DNA from: a virus
IMG/VR virus record: IMGVR_UViG_3300045988_106984
Strand: one strand, 5' to 3'
Length of the DNA stretch: 16,464 nucleotides
Part shown: positions 179 to 16,464 of the stretch, in pieces
Position numbering within the stretch: position 1 is the first letter of the stretch
Layout: every line of letters starts with the position of its first letter
Program-made: the position numbers and the translations under genes
Notes under the pieces: model-generated
The model's database searches: none
Seen by the model: only the letters and a program-made list of their open reading frames with translations
Told to the model about the DNA's origin: nothing

Positions 179-194
179 TGTTTCACATGAAACA
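179..194. promoter_or_regulatory. Palindromic motif copy 1 (TGTTTCACATGAAACA), candidate operator
   Basis: Near-perfect 16-bp palindrome 29 nt upstream of the first early gene's ATG (223). It is one of four copies in the window. Confidence 0.5.
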
Positions 195-222
195 AATTAA
201 AACAGAAAAAGGAGAAAAAATA

Positions 223-375
223 ATGCGAAAACAGTATATTAAAATTGGAAATGAACTATTTGAATTGAAAGAAAGTGTAGCATTTACACGAATTTATAAA
301 ACATTGAACGATTGTTACACAAGACCTAGTAATACAAAAAAGAAATTTATGATTTTTGGCTTAAATGGTTTATGA
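223..375 (+). CDS. Hypothetical early protein (probably the N-terminal fragment of a disrupted ~100-aa gene)
   Basis: ATG 223 is preceded by AAAGGAG at about 8 nt. The track's ATG 178 has no RBS and lies inside the palindrome. The frame ends at TGA 373-375. Confidence 0.5.
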   Translation: MRKQYIKIGNELFELKESVAFTRIYKTLNDCYTRPSNTKKKFMIFGLNGL

Positions 376-1613: not shown

Positions 1614-1883
1614 ATGACAGTTAAAGTAGAAAAAACAATGTCAGCATTTTTTGCAAATAAGGTTAGAAAAGCATTACACAAAAAAATTAAAGGCTATTCA
1701 AAATGTTGGGTACAGGACGACGTTTTGATTGCTGATATTCAACCCTTAGGCATTTACACATACCATTTCACAATATCGGAAATATCCAATCACATTTCCC
1801 ACGGCTTAACCGCCGAACAGGTTTCAAAAGATATTATAAAGGGCTACAGAGATTATATATTATCCGAGCATTTTTTTAAATAA
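1614..1883 (+). CDS. Hypothetical early protein (89 aa, basic N-terminus)
   Basis: ORF with AAAAGGAG RBS. Confidence 0.7.
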   Translation: MTVKVEKTMSAFFANKVRKALHKKIKGYSKCWVQDDVLIADIQPLGIYTYHFTISEISNHISHGLTAEQVSKDIIKGYRDYILSEHFFK

Positions 1884-1999: not shown

Positions 2000-2118
2000 G
2001 AATAGGTAGCAAAGAGGTAATGCGCCGTTAATGTCATATATTGATATTTTCATGTAGTGTAAATTTACACTAAGGTCGAGGACATCGGTTATCGTGGGTT
2101 CAAATCCCACCCTATTCA
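2000..2118 (+). ncRNA. tRNA-like RNA with an expanded arm instead of an anticodon stem-loop (not a canonical tRNA)
   Basis: Acceptor GAATAGG (2000-2006) pairs with CCTATTC (2111-2117). T8 and A9 are present. The D arm is GCA/TGC with loop equivalents of A14, R15, G18, G19 and A21. The T arm is GTGGG-TTCAAAT-CCCAC (2094-2110). There is a 5-nt variable loop. Positions 2025-2088 form a 64-nt extended arm with no 7-nt anticodon loop. No credible ORF lies in 1884-2181. Confidence 0.6.
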
Positions 2119-2520: not shown

Positions 2521-2877
2521 ATGATTACAATTAAAAAAACATCAAGAGAGTTTACACCAGTTGAAAAGTATCTTATGACAACATCTCCCGATATTACATC
2601 AATGAAAGATGTAGCAGACGGTGAAAAAATCACAGTTGACGGTTATCTCACATTTGATGATGTGAAAGAAAAAACAGGTGAAGTTGTAGAGGTGTTGAGC
2701 ATTATCACACCAGATAAAAAAGTTTACAGCTGTCAGTCAGCAACTTTCAAACGTTCAATCAGTGATATTAATGATGTAATGGAAACCACACCATTTACAG
2801 TTATCAAAATTAGTGGTAAAACAAAAGCGGGGAGAGATTTTATCAACTGTGTTCTTGATGTAGAATCAATCAGATAA
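2521..2877 (+). CDS. Single-stranded DNA-binding protein, phi29 p5-like
   Basis: 118 aa (phi29 p5 is about 124 aa). Its position lies between the p6-like and terminal protein genes. The pattern DG..I...........G......V.TI...DG..YS..S......... matches my recollection of p5. Confidence 0.55.
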   Translation: MITIKKTSREFTPVEKYLMTTSPDITSMKDVADGEKITVDGYLTFDDVKEKTGEVVEVLSIITPDKKVYSCQSATFKRSISDINDVMETTPFTVIKISGKTKAGRDFINCVLDVESIR

Positions 2878-5667: not shown

Positions 5668-5817
5668 ATGACATGTGGTGAGTTATTAGGTTTTCTAATA
5701 GAAGAATGTGATAACACAGACTGTGAGCATTGCGTTTTAGAGGAAACATGCAAAGAGTACAACACAACGCCAGAAAAAACTAAAGAGTATTTAATAAAAT
5801 GTGAAAAAGAAATATAA
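5668..5817 (+). CDS. Small Cys-rich hypothetical protein (49 aa, 6 Cys)
   Basis: ATG 5668 is preceded by GAGGT at about 8 nt. Product: MTCGELLGFLIEECDNTDCEHCVLEETCKEYNTTPEKTKEYLIKCEKEI. It ends just before the terminator and is below the track's length cutoff. Confidence 0.5.
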   Translation: MTCGELLGFLIEECDNTDCEHCVLEETCKEYNTTPEKTKEYLIKCEKEI

Positions 5818-5820
5818 AAT

Positions 5821-5866
5821 AAAATAGCGTGAGGAGAAGAAAAATCTTCTTTACTCACGCTATTTT
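5821..5866. terminator. Bidirectional rho-independent terminator between the convergent replication operon and ATPase transcript
   Basis: A 13-bp outer stem (AAAATAGCGTGAG 5821-5833 / CTCACGCTATTTT 5854-5866) plus an inner GAAGA/TCTTC stem. T-rich on the + side and A-rich (U-rich for the minus transcript) on the other side. Confidence 0.8.
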
Positions 5867-5868
5867 TA

Positions 5869-5980
5869 TATCTGTAACTTTTGTACCATTTAAAGCGGTC
5901 AGCGAAACCGAAAAGTAAACAGGCAGTATTTTTTCAACCGTGCTACCCTGTTTATTCATTAATGGAAACAAAAGCAGATA
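5869..5980 (-). ncRNA. Structured RNA, candidate prohead/packaging RNA (pRNA-like three-way junction); strand uncertain
   Basis: An 18-bp interrupted closing helix (5869-5890 with 5961-5980, including a 3-nt bulge and a 1x2 internal loop) encloses hairpins 5896-5910 and 5914-5956. No ORF with an RBS is present. The element lies between the ATPase stop codon and the terminator, so the minus strand has both a promoter and a terminator for it. Confidence 0.45.
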
Positions 5981-5981
5981 C

Positions 5982-7016
5982 CTAATAACTTAAAGCTGAT
6001 AACACAGCTTCCTTGCAACGCATATCTTTAAATCGAAAACAACCATGCTCAAAGAAATAGCGCAAATTCGATAAAAAGAAATCATTATGTTTCAACATAA
6101 TATAATTTATATTATGGTCGTCAGTCGTGACTGAAATTCTAGTTAAAAAAGAACTATCTGCCTTGTCGTCACAGTAGATTAGACCACTTTCAGTATATTC
6201 GCGTAACGCAAAGTCACTTCCTTTATATCTTAAAGTACAAAGGTATTTTGACTTTCCAGCTGGTTTTTCAACAAAAGCCTTGTTATCATTCAGATACACG
6301 CATTCACTACTATAGGCAGTATAGCTATTTTTAGAAAAAGCTCTGTTAAATCCGCTATTTTTTTGCTCTATACTTGCACTTTCAATATACCCTTGTTCAA
6401 GTACAAAACCGTCCCCCCTTAAAAACTTTGTGTCGTCTTTGAGTCTGCCAGAAATACCCATTTCAACATAGTACGGATTTATAATGCTGACTGGATTGCT
6501 TAACATATAAACTGGGACATATCGAACTTGTTCACCTTGTCCTCTAGCTATTGAGGTGTGAATACTTATAAATTTCTTAGTTTCATTATCGCAATAGTGA
6601 TTTGTTTCGCTCTGAAATTCATCAAAAATCATACGCTGAATATCTGAAAATAAGTGGCTATATTTTTTAATTTGGTCTGCATTATTTAAGCTTAATGCGT
6701 AACCACAGCTTTTATCATTTAAAAACAATTCTTGAAACGTACCTTTTGCTCTGCGCTTTGATTGCATAGTATAAGTTGGAAAGAACAAACTACCTAAATC
6801 TTTGTAAAACTTATCGACAATATCATCTAGTTCATAATTATATCTATATAATAAACCAAACTTTTCACCTTTATCTAAAAAACGATTTATACATAGTCGC
6901 CCAAAATAAGTGGTTTTTCCACCTGTCCTGTTAGTAGTGCACATATATATTTCTGGTTTATTTCCATTTATATCAAGCATTGATAAAAGTTTAGTCCCAT
7001 CATAATATTTGGTCAT
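5982..7016 (-). CDS. DNA encapsidation (packaging) ATPase, phi29 gp16-like
   Basis: 344 aa (phi29 gp16 is about 332 aa). Walker A-like NRTGGKTT and Walker B MIFDEF. AAGGAAAAGGAG RBS. This is the only strongly supported minus-strand gene. Confidence 0.85.
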   Translation of the reverse strand: MTKYYDGTKLLSMLDINGNKPEIYMCTTNRTGGKTTYFGRLCINRFLDKGEKFGLLYRYNYELDDIVDKFYKDLGSLFFPTYTMQSKRRAKGTFQELFLNDKSCGYALSLNNADQIKKYSHLFSDIQRMIFDEFQSETNHYCDNETKKFISIHTSIARGQGEQVRYVPVYMLSNPVSIINPYYVEMGISGRLKDDTKFLRGDGFVLEQGYIESASIEQKNSGFNRAFSKNSYTAYSSECVYLNDNKAFVEKPAGKSKYLCTLRYKGSDFALREYTESGLIYCDDKADSSFLTRISVTTDDHNINYIMLKHNDFFLSNLRYFFEHGCFRFKDMRCKEAVLSALSY

Positions 7017-7042: not shown

Positions 7043-7071
7043 ATTATAGCACACCTATTGACATTTTTCAA
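7043..7071 (-). promoter_or_regulatory. Promoter for the packaging ATPase transcript
   Basis: On the minus strand: TTGAAA, 17-nt spacer, TGcTATAAT (extended -10). Confidence 0.75.
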
Positions 7072-7086
7072 GATTTAGTTTATAAT
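7058..7086 (+). promoter_or_regulatory. Late-operon promoter
   Basis: TTGACA (7058-7063), 17-nt spacer, TATAAT (7081-7086), 35 nt upstream of the holin ATG. Confidence 0.8.
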
Positions 7087-9178: not shown

Positions 9179-9194
9179 TGTTTCACATGAAACA
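9179..9194. promoter_or_regulatory. Palindromic motif copy 4 (TGTTTCACATGAAACA)
   Basis: Starts 2 nt after the lysin stop codon. 9177-9195 is 19/19 identical to 177-195. Confidence 0.5.
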
Positions 9195-12686: not shown

Positions 12687-13580
12687 ATGGGAAACAGAAA
12701 AAGAGAAAAAACACTATTCGGTGAAAGTGCTACTGTAAATAATCTAACATATATGCAGTATTTGAACAGATTAACAGAGTTGAGCGTATCTATGTTTGAA
12801 TGGAAAAATTTGCCACCTACAGTAGACGCAAGATACCTTGAATTACATTTGTTTGAGACTGGGTCTATGGTTTATTTTGATGATGACGTAATAGGCAATC
12901 TTTGTTTAGACTGTTTACCTAGTGGTAGATTAGATGTTTACGGAAATCCAGTGTTAAGGCGTGCTTATTCTGCATATAATAACTACCAGAAATTGTTGAA
13001 AGAAAGCAACAGTGTAATTATCTGGAATAACTATTTGCACACCAATTCAATTTTAGAGGTGAAAATGTTTGCAAGAAGATTGTATAACCTGGATAGAATT
13101 ATAGATGTAAACGCTAACGCACAGAAAACACCAGTGCTGATACAGGGTACAGAGCAACAGAGATTGACCTTAAAGAATTTATATAAAGAGTTTGATGGTA
13201 ATTCACCTTTCATTTTTGGTGATAAAAACCTTGACTTAAATTCTTTAAAGTGCTTACAGACTGGTGCACCTTATGTTTGCGATAAATTGTATAATTTGAA
13301 ACAAATGTATTGGAATGAAGCGTTGACCTATTTAGGCATTAATAACACTGGAGCACAAAAGCGTGAACGTATGTTAGCTATAGAAAGTTCACAGGCACAG
13401 GGTGGAACTATTTCAAGTAGGTATTCCAGATTGCAGAGCAGAAGAGAAGCTGTTGAAAAAATCAATGCTATGTTTGGCACTAATATTGAAGTCAATTATA
13501 GAGAAGATTTTATGAGTATCTATGATGGACAAGGTGCTGATACCACAGAGGGAGAAAGCGAGGGTGAGTTGAATGAGTAA
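12687..13580 (+). CDS. Head-tail connector / upper collar (portal), phi29 gp10-like
   Basis: [17 protein letters not shown] and [37 protein letters not shown] match gp10 LFEWENLPPTINPSFLE and [37 protein letters not shown]. Basic N-terminal NRKREK. Confidence 0.9.
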   Translation: [297 protein letters not shown]

Positions 13581-14436
13581 ATATACAACTGAGGTTCGTT
13601 TTATCTGTGAAAGTAAGTCGGGACTTGAAAATTCTAAAGGGTGCGATGATGTTGACGAAATTTTAAGTAATAGCTGGAATAAAATTTTTACAACAAAAGC
13701 TGAAATTTTCGACGAAAATTACAGGGCTGTTATTTGCAAAAAAATTTTAAAACATTATTATTTAAGAGAAATTTGCTCTGAAACTGTCGGCATTTGGAAG
13801 TTGTGGTTAAATACACGGTTAGAAGAAATTTTACCATATTATAATCAACTTTACAAAAGCGCACTGTTAGAATTTAACCCACTGTATGATGTAAATGTTA
13901 CGAGAACGCATAATCGAACTATTGACGAAAATAAAACAGAAAACGGAACTACCACTGAAACAAGCACAGATAAAAATACTGGAAGTGGGACAAGGGATAA
14001 TACTGCAAGTGGAACTAATAACAATAGTGGTACGAGTAATGTTAGTAATAGTGGTTCTAGTAATAGTAAAGACTTGTACAGTGATACACCACAGGGAGCT
14101 TTAACTGGGGTTGAAACTGAAACGTATTTGACTAATGCTAGAAAAATTAGTAATACAGATAGCAGTACGAGTGAAAGTACTAATAGTGGTAGTGATGAAT
14201 ATGAAGATACTGGAAACGTTAAATATACTGATACAAGTGAAAGAGCAAATACAAAAAATGGAAGTAATAGCAATACCGGTACAGTGAATAATACAGAGGA
14301 ATATTTGGAAACGGTTAGCGGTAAACAGGGCAGTGGGAGTTATAGCGGAATGCTGAAAGAATATCGTGATACGTTTCTCAATATTGACAGAATGATTATT
14401 GCTGAATTTGATGATTTATTTTTCGGGCTATGGTAA
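13573..14436 (+). CDS. Lower collar protein, phi29 gp11-like, with long S/T/N/G-rich low-complexity regions
   Basis: 287 aa (gp11 is 293 aa). It overlaps the connector gene by 8 nt and is syntenic with gp11. It has an N-terminal TTEVRFICE motif and a central YSDTPQG motif. Confidence 0.75.
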   Translation: MSKYTTEVRFICESKSGLENSKGCDDVDEILSNSWNKIFTTKAEIFDENYRAVICKKILKHYYLREICSETVGIWKLWLNTRLEEILPYYNQLYKSALLEFNPLYDVNVTRTHNRTIDENKTENGTTTETSTDKNTGSGTRDNTASGTNNNSGTSNVSNSGSSNSKDLYSDTPQGALTGVETETYLTNARKISNTDSSTSESTNSGSDEYEDTGNVKYTDTSERANTKNGSNSNTGTVNNTEEYLETVSGKQGSGSYSGMLKEYRDTFLNIDRMIIAEFDDLFFGLW

Positions 14437-16345: not shown

Positions 16346-16464
16346 CAAGAACCCGTTTTCCGTCATAGTTGTTTAACCCTAATACTTCAATAACTCTATC
16401 TTCTGAAACTACACATAACCCAGTTCTAGTTGTTGAACCATTGAAATACTCACATAAAACTTTA
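16346..16464. repeat. Right inverted terminal repeat (ITR), 119 bp
   Basis: Exact reverse complement of 1-119. Confidence 0.95.

Follow-up and report, generated by a model that had tools for sequence, protein, structure and literature searches.

No RNA other than the prohead RNA (pRNA) of phage phi29 is known to serve as an essential structural component of a viral motor for DNA packaging, and pRNA has also become a workhorse of RNA nanotechnology. Reviews from 2016 (PMC5066667) and 2024 (PMC11476376), the latter using a set of phi29-like phages that includes CS229P1, both confine pRNA, as far as currently known, to phi29 and its relatives among Bacillus phages. A paper on C. perfringens podoviruses names pRNA only as the partner of gp16 (PMC3362512), a structure-based search published in 2025 added 12 new pRNAs, all from Bacillus phages (PMC12670572), and the time of origin of pRNA has been stated as unknown (bioRxiv 10.1101/2020.07.06.188573). 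Here we describe a 114-nt RNA element located at positions 5868-5981, minus strand, of the virus record IMGVR_UViG_3300045988_106984 from IMG/VR, whose whole 16,464-nt stretch of DNA is referred to below as the window. The element lies immediately 3' of a gene for a gp16-type packaging ATPase. An earlier note, made from the letters alone, had proposed a prohead-RNA-like RNA with a three-way junction, physically linked to the ATPase gene of a phi29-like phage other than a Bacillus phage, and the comparative evidence given here strongly supports this proposal. The note had also called such an RNA unusual. The reviews restrict pRNA to Bacillus phages, and in the full-text literature, the coverage of which is incomplete, so that absence is not proof, we came across no pRNA reported from any other phage. 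Based on sequence comparisons, we consider it probable (roughly 70%) that the element is a divergent pRNA that is co-transcribed with the ATPase gene and that would function in packaging.

The phi29-family pRNAs united in Rfam family RF00044 (Phage_pRNA, a three-way-junction core) come from the Bacillus phages phi29, PZA, Nf/M2, B103, SF5 and GA-1, and from B. cereus-group relatives. In the Rfam consensus, the 5' strand of helix A, a helix with a 3-nt bulge, is followed by the C helix, a 9-nt bulge on the 5' strand, a 4-bp E helix with a 6-nt loop, the junction sequence UUU and the D hairpin, after which the chain returns to helix A. The element in the window has the same order of parts: a long helix A, interrupted by a bulge, joins its 5' and 3' ends and closes a three-way junction, from which a C-E arm, with a bulge on its 5' side only and an E helix of likewise 4 bp, and then, after a U-rich junction strand, a short D hairpin protrude. 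RNA position p corresponds to window coordinate 5982 - p. The parts are listed here in the order of the RNA as far as possible, alignment A1 and covariance model R1 being explained below.

5868-5981, minus strand: whole pRNA-like RNA element, 114 nt, defined by the match of model R1 and by covariation; the stop codon UAG is followed directly by its first bases GUAUCU
5975-5981, minus strand: helix A outer segment, 5' strand GUAUCUG, paired with 5868-5874 (RNA 1-7/108-114)
5868-5874, minus strand: helix A outer segment, 3' strand CAGAUAU (sequence, alignment A1)
5968-5974, minus strand: helix A middle segment, 5' strand CUUUUGU, paired with 5878-5884 (RNA 8-14/98-104)
5878-5884, minus strand: helix A middle segment, 3' strand ACAAAAG (alignment A1)
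5875-5877, minus strand: 3-nt bulge UUA on the 3' strand of helix A (RNA 105-107; fold)
5961-5965, minus strand: helix A inner segment, 5' strand CCAUU, paired with 5886-5890 (RNA 17-21/92-96)
5886-5890, minus strand: helix A inner segment, 3' strand AAUGG (A1 and model-based alignment)
5947-5954, minus strand: C helix, 5' strand UAAACAGG, paired with 5916-5923 (RNA 28-35/59-66; minimum-free-energy (MFE) fold)
5941-5946, minus strand: 5'-side bulge GUAGCA between the C and E helices (RNA 36-41), counterpart of the right-hand (CE) loop of phi29
5937-5940, minus strand: E helix, 5' strand CGGU, paired with 5924-5927 (RNA 42-45/55-58)
5928-5936, minus strand: E loop UGAAAAAAU, 9 nt, with a nearly invariant motif UGRAA (conservation line of A1)
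5924-5927, minus strand: E helix, 3' strand ACUG (RNAalifold, A1)
5916-5923, minus strand: C helix, 3' strand CCUGUUUA (MFE fold, model-based alignment)
5911-5915, minus strand: U-rich junction strand CUUUU between the C and D helices; family consensus UUUGU
5896-5910, minus strand: D hairpin CGGU-UUCGCUG-ACCG (RNA 72-86) with a 7-nt loop at 5900-5906, counterpart of the left-hand (D) loop of phi29

The element thus starts with the base directly 3' of the ATPase stop codon. The core GUAUC/GAUAU of the outer helix A segment is nearly invariant, its U-A, A-U, U-A and C-G pairs being present in 48-49 of 49 sequences. The 5' strand of the inner segment is followed by the junction strand UAAUGAA, whose UGA is nearly invariant, and a short strand leads from the D hairpin back to helix A.

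Most of this plan had been read from the sequence before. The helix pairs listed then (5869-5874/5975-5980, TATCTG/CAGATA; 5878-5884/5968-5974, CTTTTGT/ACAAAAG; 5886-5890/5961-5965, CCATT/AATGG), the hairpin CGGT-CAGCGAA-ACCG (5896-5910), the stem 5914-5923/5947-5956 and the ATPase stop at 5982-5984 on the minus strand are all present, and ViennaRNA returned the same three-way junction closed by an 18-bp bulged helix on both strands; the covariance model widened the boundaries by one G-U pair, to 5868-5981. What had been taken for a 23-nt loop is not a loop. It consists of the 6-nt bulge 5941-5946, a 4-bp helix (5937-5940/5924-5927), which covaries, and the 9-nt loop 5928-5936. With respect to shuffled sequences, the minus strand folds at -27.2 kcal/mol (z -2.35), the plus strand at -28.2 kcal/mol (z -3.85), and the 176-nt minus-strand RNA 5806-5981, which includes the terminator hairpin next to the element, at -54.1 kcal/mol (z -6.5), a value as low as that being reached by none of 200 shuffles. 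Folding against shuffled controls, proposed earlier as a check, thus gives a modest z-score for the minus-strand element alone. We regard the single-sequence fold alone as suggestive, not compelling, and it does not tell which strand is functional.

Stronger evidence comes from related phages. Scans of IMG/VR with three ATPases, those of the window, of CS229P2 and of MT835854, yielded 237 loci, which three GenBank genomes raised to 240, with ATPase identities down to about 58%. The 300 nt 3' of each ATPase stop amounted to 223 distinct sequences, which fell into 60 clusters. Nearly all of these have a block of ~110-115 nt, bounded by GUAUC/GAUAU, that starts 3-13 nt past the ATPase stop, and in some clusters an insert of 25-60 nt lies ahead of it; by eye, a G+C-rich hairpin and a T run are located 3' of the block. 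When 49 diverse copies were aligned with MAFFT, structure-blind (alignment A1), RNAalifold recovered the three closing-helix segments, a 3-bp helix within the former 'large loop' and the D hairpin, with compensatory changes in 21 of the 25 pairs. The full structure, which consists of the RNAalifold pairs plus the C helix, a fourth E pair and a bulge/loop pairing noticed by eye, is paired in 89.9% of the cells of A1, against 67.0 +/- 0.7% with the 3' partners shuffled and 32-42% with the partners slid, and its covariation score is 0.579, against 0.162 for shuffled partners.

The helix A segments are 84-99.7% paired, and all 12 modelled pairs of the middle segment (6 of 6; 98.6% of the cells paired in A1) and the inner segment (6 of 6; 84-90% paired) show compensatory changes. 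The same applies to the four pairs of the D stem (96% paired in A1) and to the four of the E helix, examples of which are CGGU/ACUG, CACU/AGUG, UGGC/GCCA and CGUU/AACG, while the inner five pairs of the C helix are 97.8% paired in the model-based alignment, four of them with changes on both sides. The covariance model R1, built from A1 and so from clostridial-phage copies only, has a single match in the window, 5868-5981 on the minus strand (113 bits, E 2e-26; next best 14 bits), and it matches 59 of the 60 cluster representatives, every one on the ATPase strand. The one representative without a match, L240 (ATPase identity 44%), has the same plan in its fold, with a z-score of -4.4. In the R1-based alignment of the 59 copies (A2), 93.3% of the cells are paired and the covariation score is 0.633. 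The only pairs that carry no covariation information are an invariant G-C of the C helix and four nearly invariant inner ones of the closing helix (U-A, A-U, U-A, C-G), and compensatory changes are found in every helix beyond the conserved GUAUC/GAUAU closing pairs. Conservation and covariation of the closing helix, on which the earlier proposal depended, are thus found in relatives. The view that the element is an inverted repeat that arose by chance in a spacer rich in A+T, for which the modest minus-strand z-score of -2.35 might be put forward, is refuted by the conservation in 59 of 60 clusters, by the compensatory changes beyond the closing pairs and by the fact that no shuffled or slid control comes close; we leave it practically no weight and hold it practically certain that the element is a selected structured RNA.

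The pairs also tell the strand. When the nested helices are read in the ATPase sense, G-U or U-G pairs occupy 117 cells and A-C or C-A 20, and on the opposite strand those G-U pairs would turn into A-C mismatches. The large excess of G-U over A-C in the ATPase sense indicates that the element works as an RNA of that sense, that is, of the window minus strand. Consistent with this, only in the ATPase direction is there a terminator 3' of the element. The plus strand has the better z-score but, as functional strand, is ruled out by the G-U/A-C counts and the position of the terminator. The counts also bear on a role at the DNA level, in which the repeat would form a cruciform or would be bound by a protein for replication, for termination between convergent units or for genome recognition in packaging. 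Such a role would suit a closing helix that in the window is all Watson-Crick, the slightly better folding of the plus strand (z -3.85 versus -2.35) and a location between convergent transcription units beside a bidirectional terminator. However, the 117 G-U against 20 A-C across relatives are expected only for an RNA of the ATPase sense, and protein-binding sites in DNA are not known to have branched folds with long-range pairings that covary, which makes a DNA-level element very unlikely. A coding function was rejected as well: only unconserved open reading frames (ORFs) of 29-38 aa overlap the element, and single-base insertions and deletions occur among relatives.

The long-range pairing involves the bulge and the D loop. 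In phi29 pRNA, the last bases of the bulge pair with the D loop and covary with it (AACC/GGUU), and in the window the bulge bases UAGC (5942-5945) are likewise complementary to GCUG (5900-5903) in the D loop. The earlier note had placed a loop-loop contact elsewhere, between AACCG and CGGT. A contact exists, but as UAGC/GCUG; the one proposed would join a strand of the E helix to the D stem, and all four of its pairs occur in only 4 of 58 copies. In the family the pairing bases are the last 4-5 of the bulge and those of the D loop, and both sides change while complementarity is kept, as in UUGCA/UGCAG, AAGCA/UGCUU, GCGC/GCGU, ACGC/GCGU and CGCA/UGCG; further variants are AGUA/UACU, GGCA/UGCC, ACACA/UGUGU, UAACA/UGUUA and CUGUA/UACAG. 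Counted as a helix of 5 pairs on A1, the contact is 85.3% paired versus 67.2 +/- 1.7% with shuffled partners (0 of 500 shuffles reach the observed value) and 22-61% with slid ones; its covariation score is 0.454 versus 0.129, and both partners vary in each of the five pairs. On A2 it is 85.9% paired, a result that is not circular because the pairing is not part of model R1. Contiguous complementarity extends over at least 3 bases in all 58 full-length copies and over at least 4 in 51 of them, with a mean run of 4.17 observed versus 3.49 +/- 0.08 when the partners are shuffled. Covarying complementarity between bulge and D loop was the criterion by which new pRNAs were authenticated in the 2025 paper of the Guo laboratory (PMC12670572). 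By analogy with phi29, the pairing may form between molecules.

This behavior of the exposed sequences also bears on the possibility that the element is a trans-acting phage small RNA with another job, such as base-pairing with mRNAs or sequestering a host protein, whose likeness to pRNA would be convergent. A conserved structured RNA with exposed conserved loops that matches no known family could be such a molecule, but the bulge and the D loop vary freely if they remain mutually complementary, and such free variation with kept complementarity points to self-pairing rather than to pairing with a fixed external target. In addition, the strict linkage to gp16 across clades would be left unexplained. 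We therefore consider a small RNA of this kind quite improbable. Bacterial small RNAs derived from 3' untranslated regions (UTRs) share the terminator of their parent gene and usually act on other mRNAs by a conserved single-stranded seed. The element resembles them in lying directly 3' of a coding sequence, in sharing its terminator and in having no obvious promoter of its own, and differs from them in that its exposed sequences covary mutually and are not fixed.

Some relatives carry variants of the element. In L036, L027, L030, L001 and their relatives, an extra block of ~40-60 nt separates the stop codon from the GGUAUC with which the element starts; the block carries a conserved hairpin, CCACAU-UAGU-AUGUGG, with the flanks GUUAUC...GAUAAC, and may extend the RNA or mark a processing site. 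A small ORF is inserted between the ATPase stop and the element in L120 (element at 2770-2881), L239 (2776-2889) and L233 (2776-2836, where the contig end cuts it), so that the element lies ~240 nt past the ATPase stop; the element therefore need not adjoin the stop codon directly. The MT835854 clade (L003 5977-6109, minus strand; L164-L206 and L229 at ~2535-2667, plus strand) has a 131-133-nt version in which a helix GGUC/GACC enclosing two small hairpins replaces the D arm, giving a four-way junction, and in which the bulge/loop complementarity is down to GCA/UGC. In MT836152 (L242 8702-8789, plus strand; 41% ATPase identity), an 88-nt structured element directly follows the ATPase stop. Its R1 match is weak (15.8 bits, E 0.25), and we did not count it as evidence because its MFE fold lacks the junction and prefers an 8-bp pairing of 'bulge' and 'D hairpin'; it may be a reduced or alternative form.

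The comparison with phi29-family pRNA, which draws also on PMC5066667 and PMC12670572, extends from architecture to size and surroundings. The element has 114 nt versus 117-120 nt for domain I in the phi29 family (118 nt in the Rfam model), and a 3' hairpin or terminator domain follows both, the terminator 5822-5866 being at the position of domain II of phi29 pRNA. The main differences in structure are that helix A has 18 bp in three segments versus ~22 bp in phi29 pRNA, that the junction strands are longer (5, 5 and 3 nt versus 1, 3 and 0), and that the D hairpin has a stem of 4 bp and a loop of 7 nt versus 6 bp and 5 nt. Moreover, the host phages are those of gut Clostridia instead of Bacillus, and the element abuts the ATPase stop in mid-genome whereas, according to the annotations, the pRNA of phi29, GA-1 and Nf is an independent gene near the left genome end. 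With its filters off, R1 gives a full-length alignment at phi29 209-314 (minus strand, 11.0 bits), inside the pRNA at 201-318, which pairs each helix of the model with the true A, C, E and D helices, and another at GA-1 1767-1880 (minus strand, 9.0 bits), where the pRNA is annotated at 1719-1879. The scores are at noise level and by themselves say nothing, but by a rough estimate, from ~5-11 background matches and ~40,000 strand positions, such a coincidence in position is expected in a few in a thousand cases per genome. We read this as confirming that the element and phi29 pRNA share an architecture, and as leaving common descent open.

The genome around the element is that of a phi29-type phage. 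The window has perfect terminal inverted repeats of 119 bp (1-119 and 16346-16464), far longer than the 6 bp of phi29, which identify it as a complete linear genome of the protein-primed type. The two packaging genes are the following.

5982-7016, minus strand: gp16-type DNA encapsidation ATPase gene, 344 aa (Pfam PF05894 Podovirus_Gp16, E 3e-29)
12687-13580, plus strand: connector (portal) gene of the gp10 family (Pfam PF05352 Phage_connector GP10 for 12687-13577, E 1e-65; translation)

Pfam also matches a protein-primed type B DNA polymerase (DNA_pol_B_2, PF03175), Phi29_MCP and a gp9 tail knob. The gene set is thus that of phages with a phi29-type pRNA: a gp10-type connector, a gp16-type ATPase free of a nuclease domain, and protein-primed replication with a type B polymerase and terminal inverted repeats. 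The closest deposited genomes are the uncultured human-gut phages MT835814 and MT835854 and the Clostridium symbiosum phages CS229P1-3, and the ATPase is 26% identical to gp16 of phi29. Taken together with the Pfam gene set, this identifies the phage as a phi29-like podovirus of gut Clostridia (Lachnospiraceae-type hosts), far from the Bacillus phages. The translated connector starts with the basic sequence MGNRKREK, as noted earlier, and similar basic patches to its RKR are present in all clostridial relatives examined. The connector would be the docking partner of the RNA, and the patch is consistent with pRNA docking, which is only suggestive.

The plus strand carries all sizeable ORFs but one, the exception being 5982-7016, so that the ATPase gene is the only substantial minus-strand gene in the genome. 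Its surroundings contain three signals.

5822-5866, minus strand: terminator hairpin directly 3' of the element, with a U-rich tail at 5810-5821 (fold of 5806-5981)
7043-7071, minus strand: promoter-like site of the ATPase unit, TTGAAA, 17-nt spacer, TG-TATAAT, 11/12 consensus positions; consensus match only
7058-7086, plus strand: promoter-like site of the plus-strand late genes, TTGACA-17-TATAAT, 12/12 in the consensus scan

The promoter predicted at 7043-7071 is therefore found (TTGAAA-17-TATAAT with an upstream TG), and in the fold of 5806-5981 the element ends, as also predicted, at the hairpin 5822-5866 on the minus strand. This terminator is bidirectional because its A tract pairs with its U tract, and it is not listed by a simple terminator scan because its stem is interrupted. 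That the element itself is an intrinsic terminator or a simple 3' stabiliser was rejected, the 114-nt element being branched and A+U-rich; the single G+C-rich hairpin with a U tract is 5822-5866. The ATPase gene, the element and the terminator are most likely one minus-strand transcription unit, the only one in the genome, driven by the strong promoter-like site 7043-7071. The sites 7071-7043 (minus) and 7058-7086 (plus) are arranged back-to-back with overlapping -35 regions, which suggests that the packaging unit and the structural genes are controlled in concert.

Candidates for a related element are present in more distant gut phages, in which they occupy the other side of the ATPase gene. 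They were recognized by eye and in single-sequence folds, and are to be taken as a lead, not a result. R1 found nothing significant in the Hungatella phage CH17P1 or in CI461P2 and CI55P1 of the C. innocuum group, three phages with ATPases that share 22-26% identity with that of the window. In each of them, a gap of 150-235 nt that carries no annotation directly precedes the ATPase gene, and the gap folds into a three-way junction of the same plan, after a sigma-70-like promoter. Further loci are given in one line.

L244 4667-4772 and L243 ~13683-13790 (both plus strand), L296 upstream of 1201, and L248-L298 generally: 5' elements of other clades (folds)

Like the element in the window, these adjoin the gp16 gene on its strand and have a three-way junction, a 5'-side bulge, a short E helix, a D hairpin and bulge/D-loop complementarity (ACCA/UGGU in CI461P2, GCUA/UAGC in CH17P1). 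Their E loops read GGUGAAAU, or UUGAGU as in phi29, the latter letters being found in the IMG/VR relative L296, whose fold has a z-score of -5.2. Unlike the element in the window, they are upstream of the ATPase start codon and behind a promoter, helix A being followed by a U tract and then by the ribosome-binding site of the ATPase gene, and they are too diverged for R1. Neither Rfam nor R1 detects them, and we found no description of them in the literature searched. This suggests that the RNA accompanies the ATPase gene on either side, as would fit a trans-acting partner of gp16 better than a cis element that depends on its position.

This bears directly on the possibility that the element is a cis-acting structure in the 3' UTR of the ATPase mRNA, serving as protection against exonucleases or as a site of gp16 autoregulation, outside the packaging motor. 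An element that directly follows the stop codon without a promoter of its own and that is always linked to the ATPase gene fits such a role, and the ATPase 5' leader, in which the analogue of other clades is located, would be a sensible place for an autoregulatory site. However, a location at the 3' end in one clade and at the 5' end in others is hard to square with one cis function, and a protective role calls neither for a three-way junction whose tertiary pairing covaries nor for single-stranded motifs that hardly vary, the more so as the terminator hairpin already gives a 3' block. In addition, a small ORF separates the element from the ATPase gene by ~240 nt in three loci. We therefore regard a cis-acting 3' UTR structure as unlikely.

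Several points weigh against a pRNA. RF00044 gives no match at E up to 10, either in the whole window or, with laxer filters, in the 211-nt region 5800-6010, while as a positive control it finds phi29 pRNA with 145.4 bits (gathering threshold 100 bits). The Rfam search proposed as a check is thus negative, and the element is not a member of the curated family as modelled. Conversely, the R1 scores on phi29 and GA-1 are no better than those of unrelated background matches in the same genomes, and R1 misses the Nf pRNA. Phi29-type pRNAs have an early promoter of their own at the genome end (A1 in phi29, A1b in GA-1, A1 in Nf), whereas no own promoter was found directly upstream of the element by the consensus scan or, over 60 nt, by eye; a discrete RNA would therefore need processing. 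The bulge/D-loop pairing, which is of only 3 bp in 7 of 58 relatives, could, judged from the sequences, be an intramolecular pseudoknot. Finally, a basic connector N-terminus is not diagnostic, as GA-1 lacks the patch and yet has a pRNA. As for other candidates, the best own-promoter sequence upstream of the element, TTGCAA-18-TTTAAG, is a poor match. An Rfam scan of 7 related genomes and of 14 other-clade loci (the latter at E up to 1) gave no pRNA or other relevant family, and the sole overlapping match, STnc410, with 21 bits against a threshold of 50 bits, was dismissed as chance.

Despite these points, the element has all structural and contextual features of a pRNA that can be looked for in a sequence, except an own promoter at the genome end, and a mechanism for it as a divergent pRNA can be proposed. 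Transcription would start at the 7043-7071 ATPase promoter, and the element would be the 3' end of the gp16 transcript, which would end at the terminator 5822-5866. A cut just after the stop codon, between UAG and GUAUC, or else an unrecognised internal start, would release it as a discrete small RNA. If it behaves like phi29 pRNA, its C-E arm and D hairpin would attach to the empty prohead at the connector, and adjacent copies would assemble into a ring in which UAGC in each bulge is paired with GCUG in the D loop of the neighbor. The ring of gp16 ATPase, by which the linear, protein-primed genome is pumped into the head, would dock onto helix A with its invariant GUAUC/GAUAU terminus, and packaging would depend on the RNA as it does in phi29. 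Co-transcription would tie the output of the RNA to that of the ATPase.

A broader scenario, for and against which we see even odds, is that prohead RNA is ancestral and widespread in the gp16-type motors of phi29-like podoviruses of Firmicutes, that it originally formed a two-part cassette with the ATPase gene, as a 5' leader or a 3' trailer depending on the clade, and that the separate early gene of the Bacillus phages is derived. If so, the hundreds of variants in gut metagenomes would be a ready resource for tracing covariation in the pRNA ring and in its contacts with proteins. If the element is a pRNA, the origin of RNA-dependent motors would be pushed far deeper into the phi29-like lineage, and the evolutionary question would be open to experiment since some relatives are in culture, namely Clostridium phages CS229P1-3 on C. 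symbiosum DA229, with the element at L002 5658-5770. The natural sequences then at hand would number more than 200, with compensatory changes in the helices beyond the closing pairs and in the ring-forming contact, and the GUAUC/GAUAU end of helix A, the UGA of the junction and the UGRAA of the E loop would be candidate protein contacts. It would also imply that annotation with RF00044 misses this whole group, carried by abundant human-gut clostridial phages.

Two further observations concern other parts of the genome. The Rfam tRNA model matches window 2000-2118 on the plus strand with 48.3 bits (threshold 29) and with a 58-nt insertion at the place of the anticodon loop. The match lies in the non-coding gap 1884-2181; ARAGORN calls no tRNA there, and the relatives L001-L003 have no tRNA at the gathering score. 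By eye, a TTGACA-17-TATTAT site is present upstream of it at 1896-1924, as is a second T-arm-like hairpin, GGCGG-UAUUCAAU-CCGCC, at ~1968-1986. The match may represent a tRNA that is interrupted or degenerate, or else a tRNA-like RNA.

The other is a 14-bp palindrome, GTTTCACGTGAAAC, which occurs with at most 1 mismatch at window positions 180-193, 783-796, 1226-1239 and 9180-9193, where 0.1 occurrences are expected by chance, and which is also present in many related and distant phi29-like gut phages. It is located between the ATPase stop and the RNA element in CS229P2 (L002 5781-5794) and in L237, and inside the terminator region in the MT835854 clade. The palindrome looks like an operator for a phage regulator.

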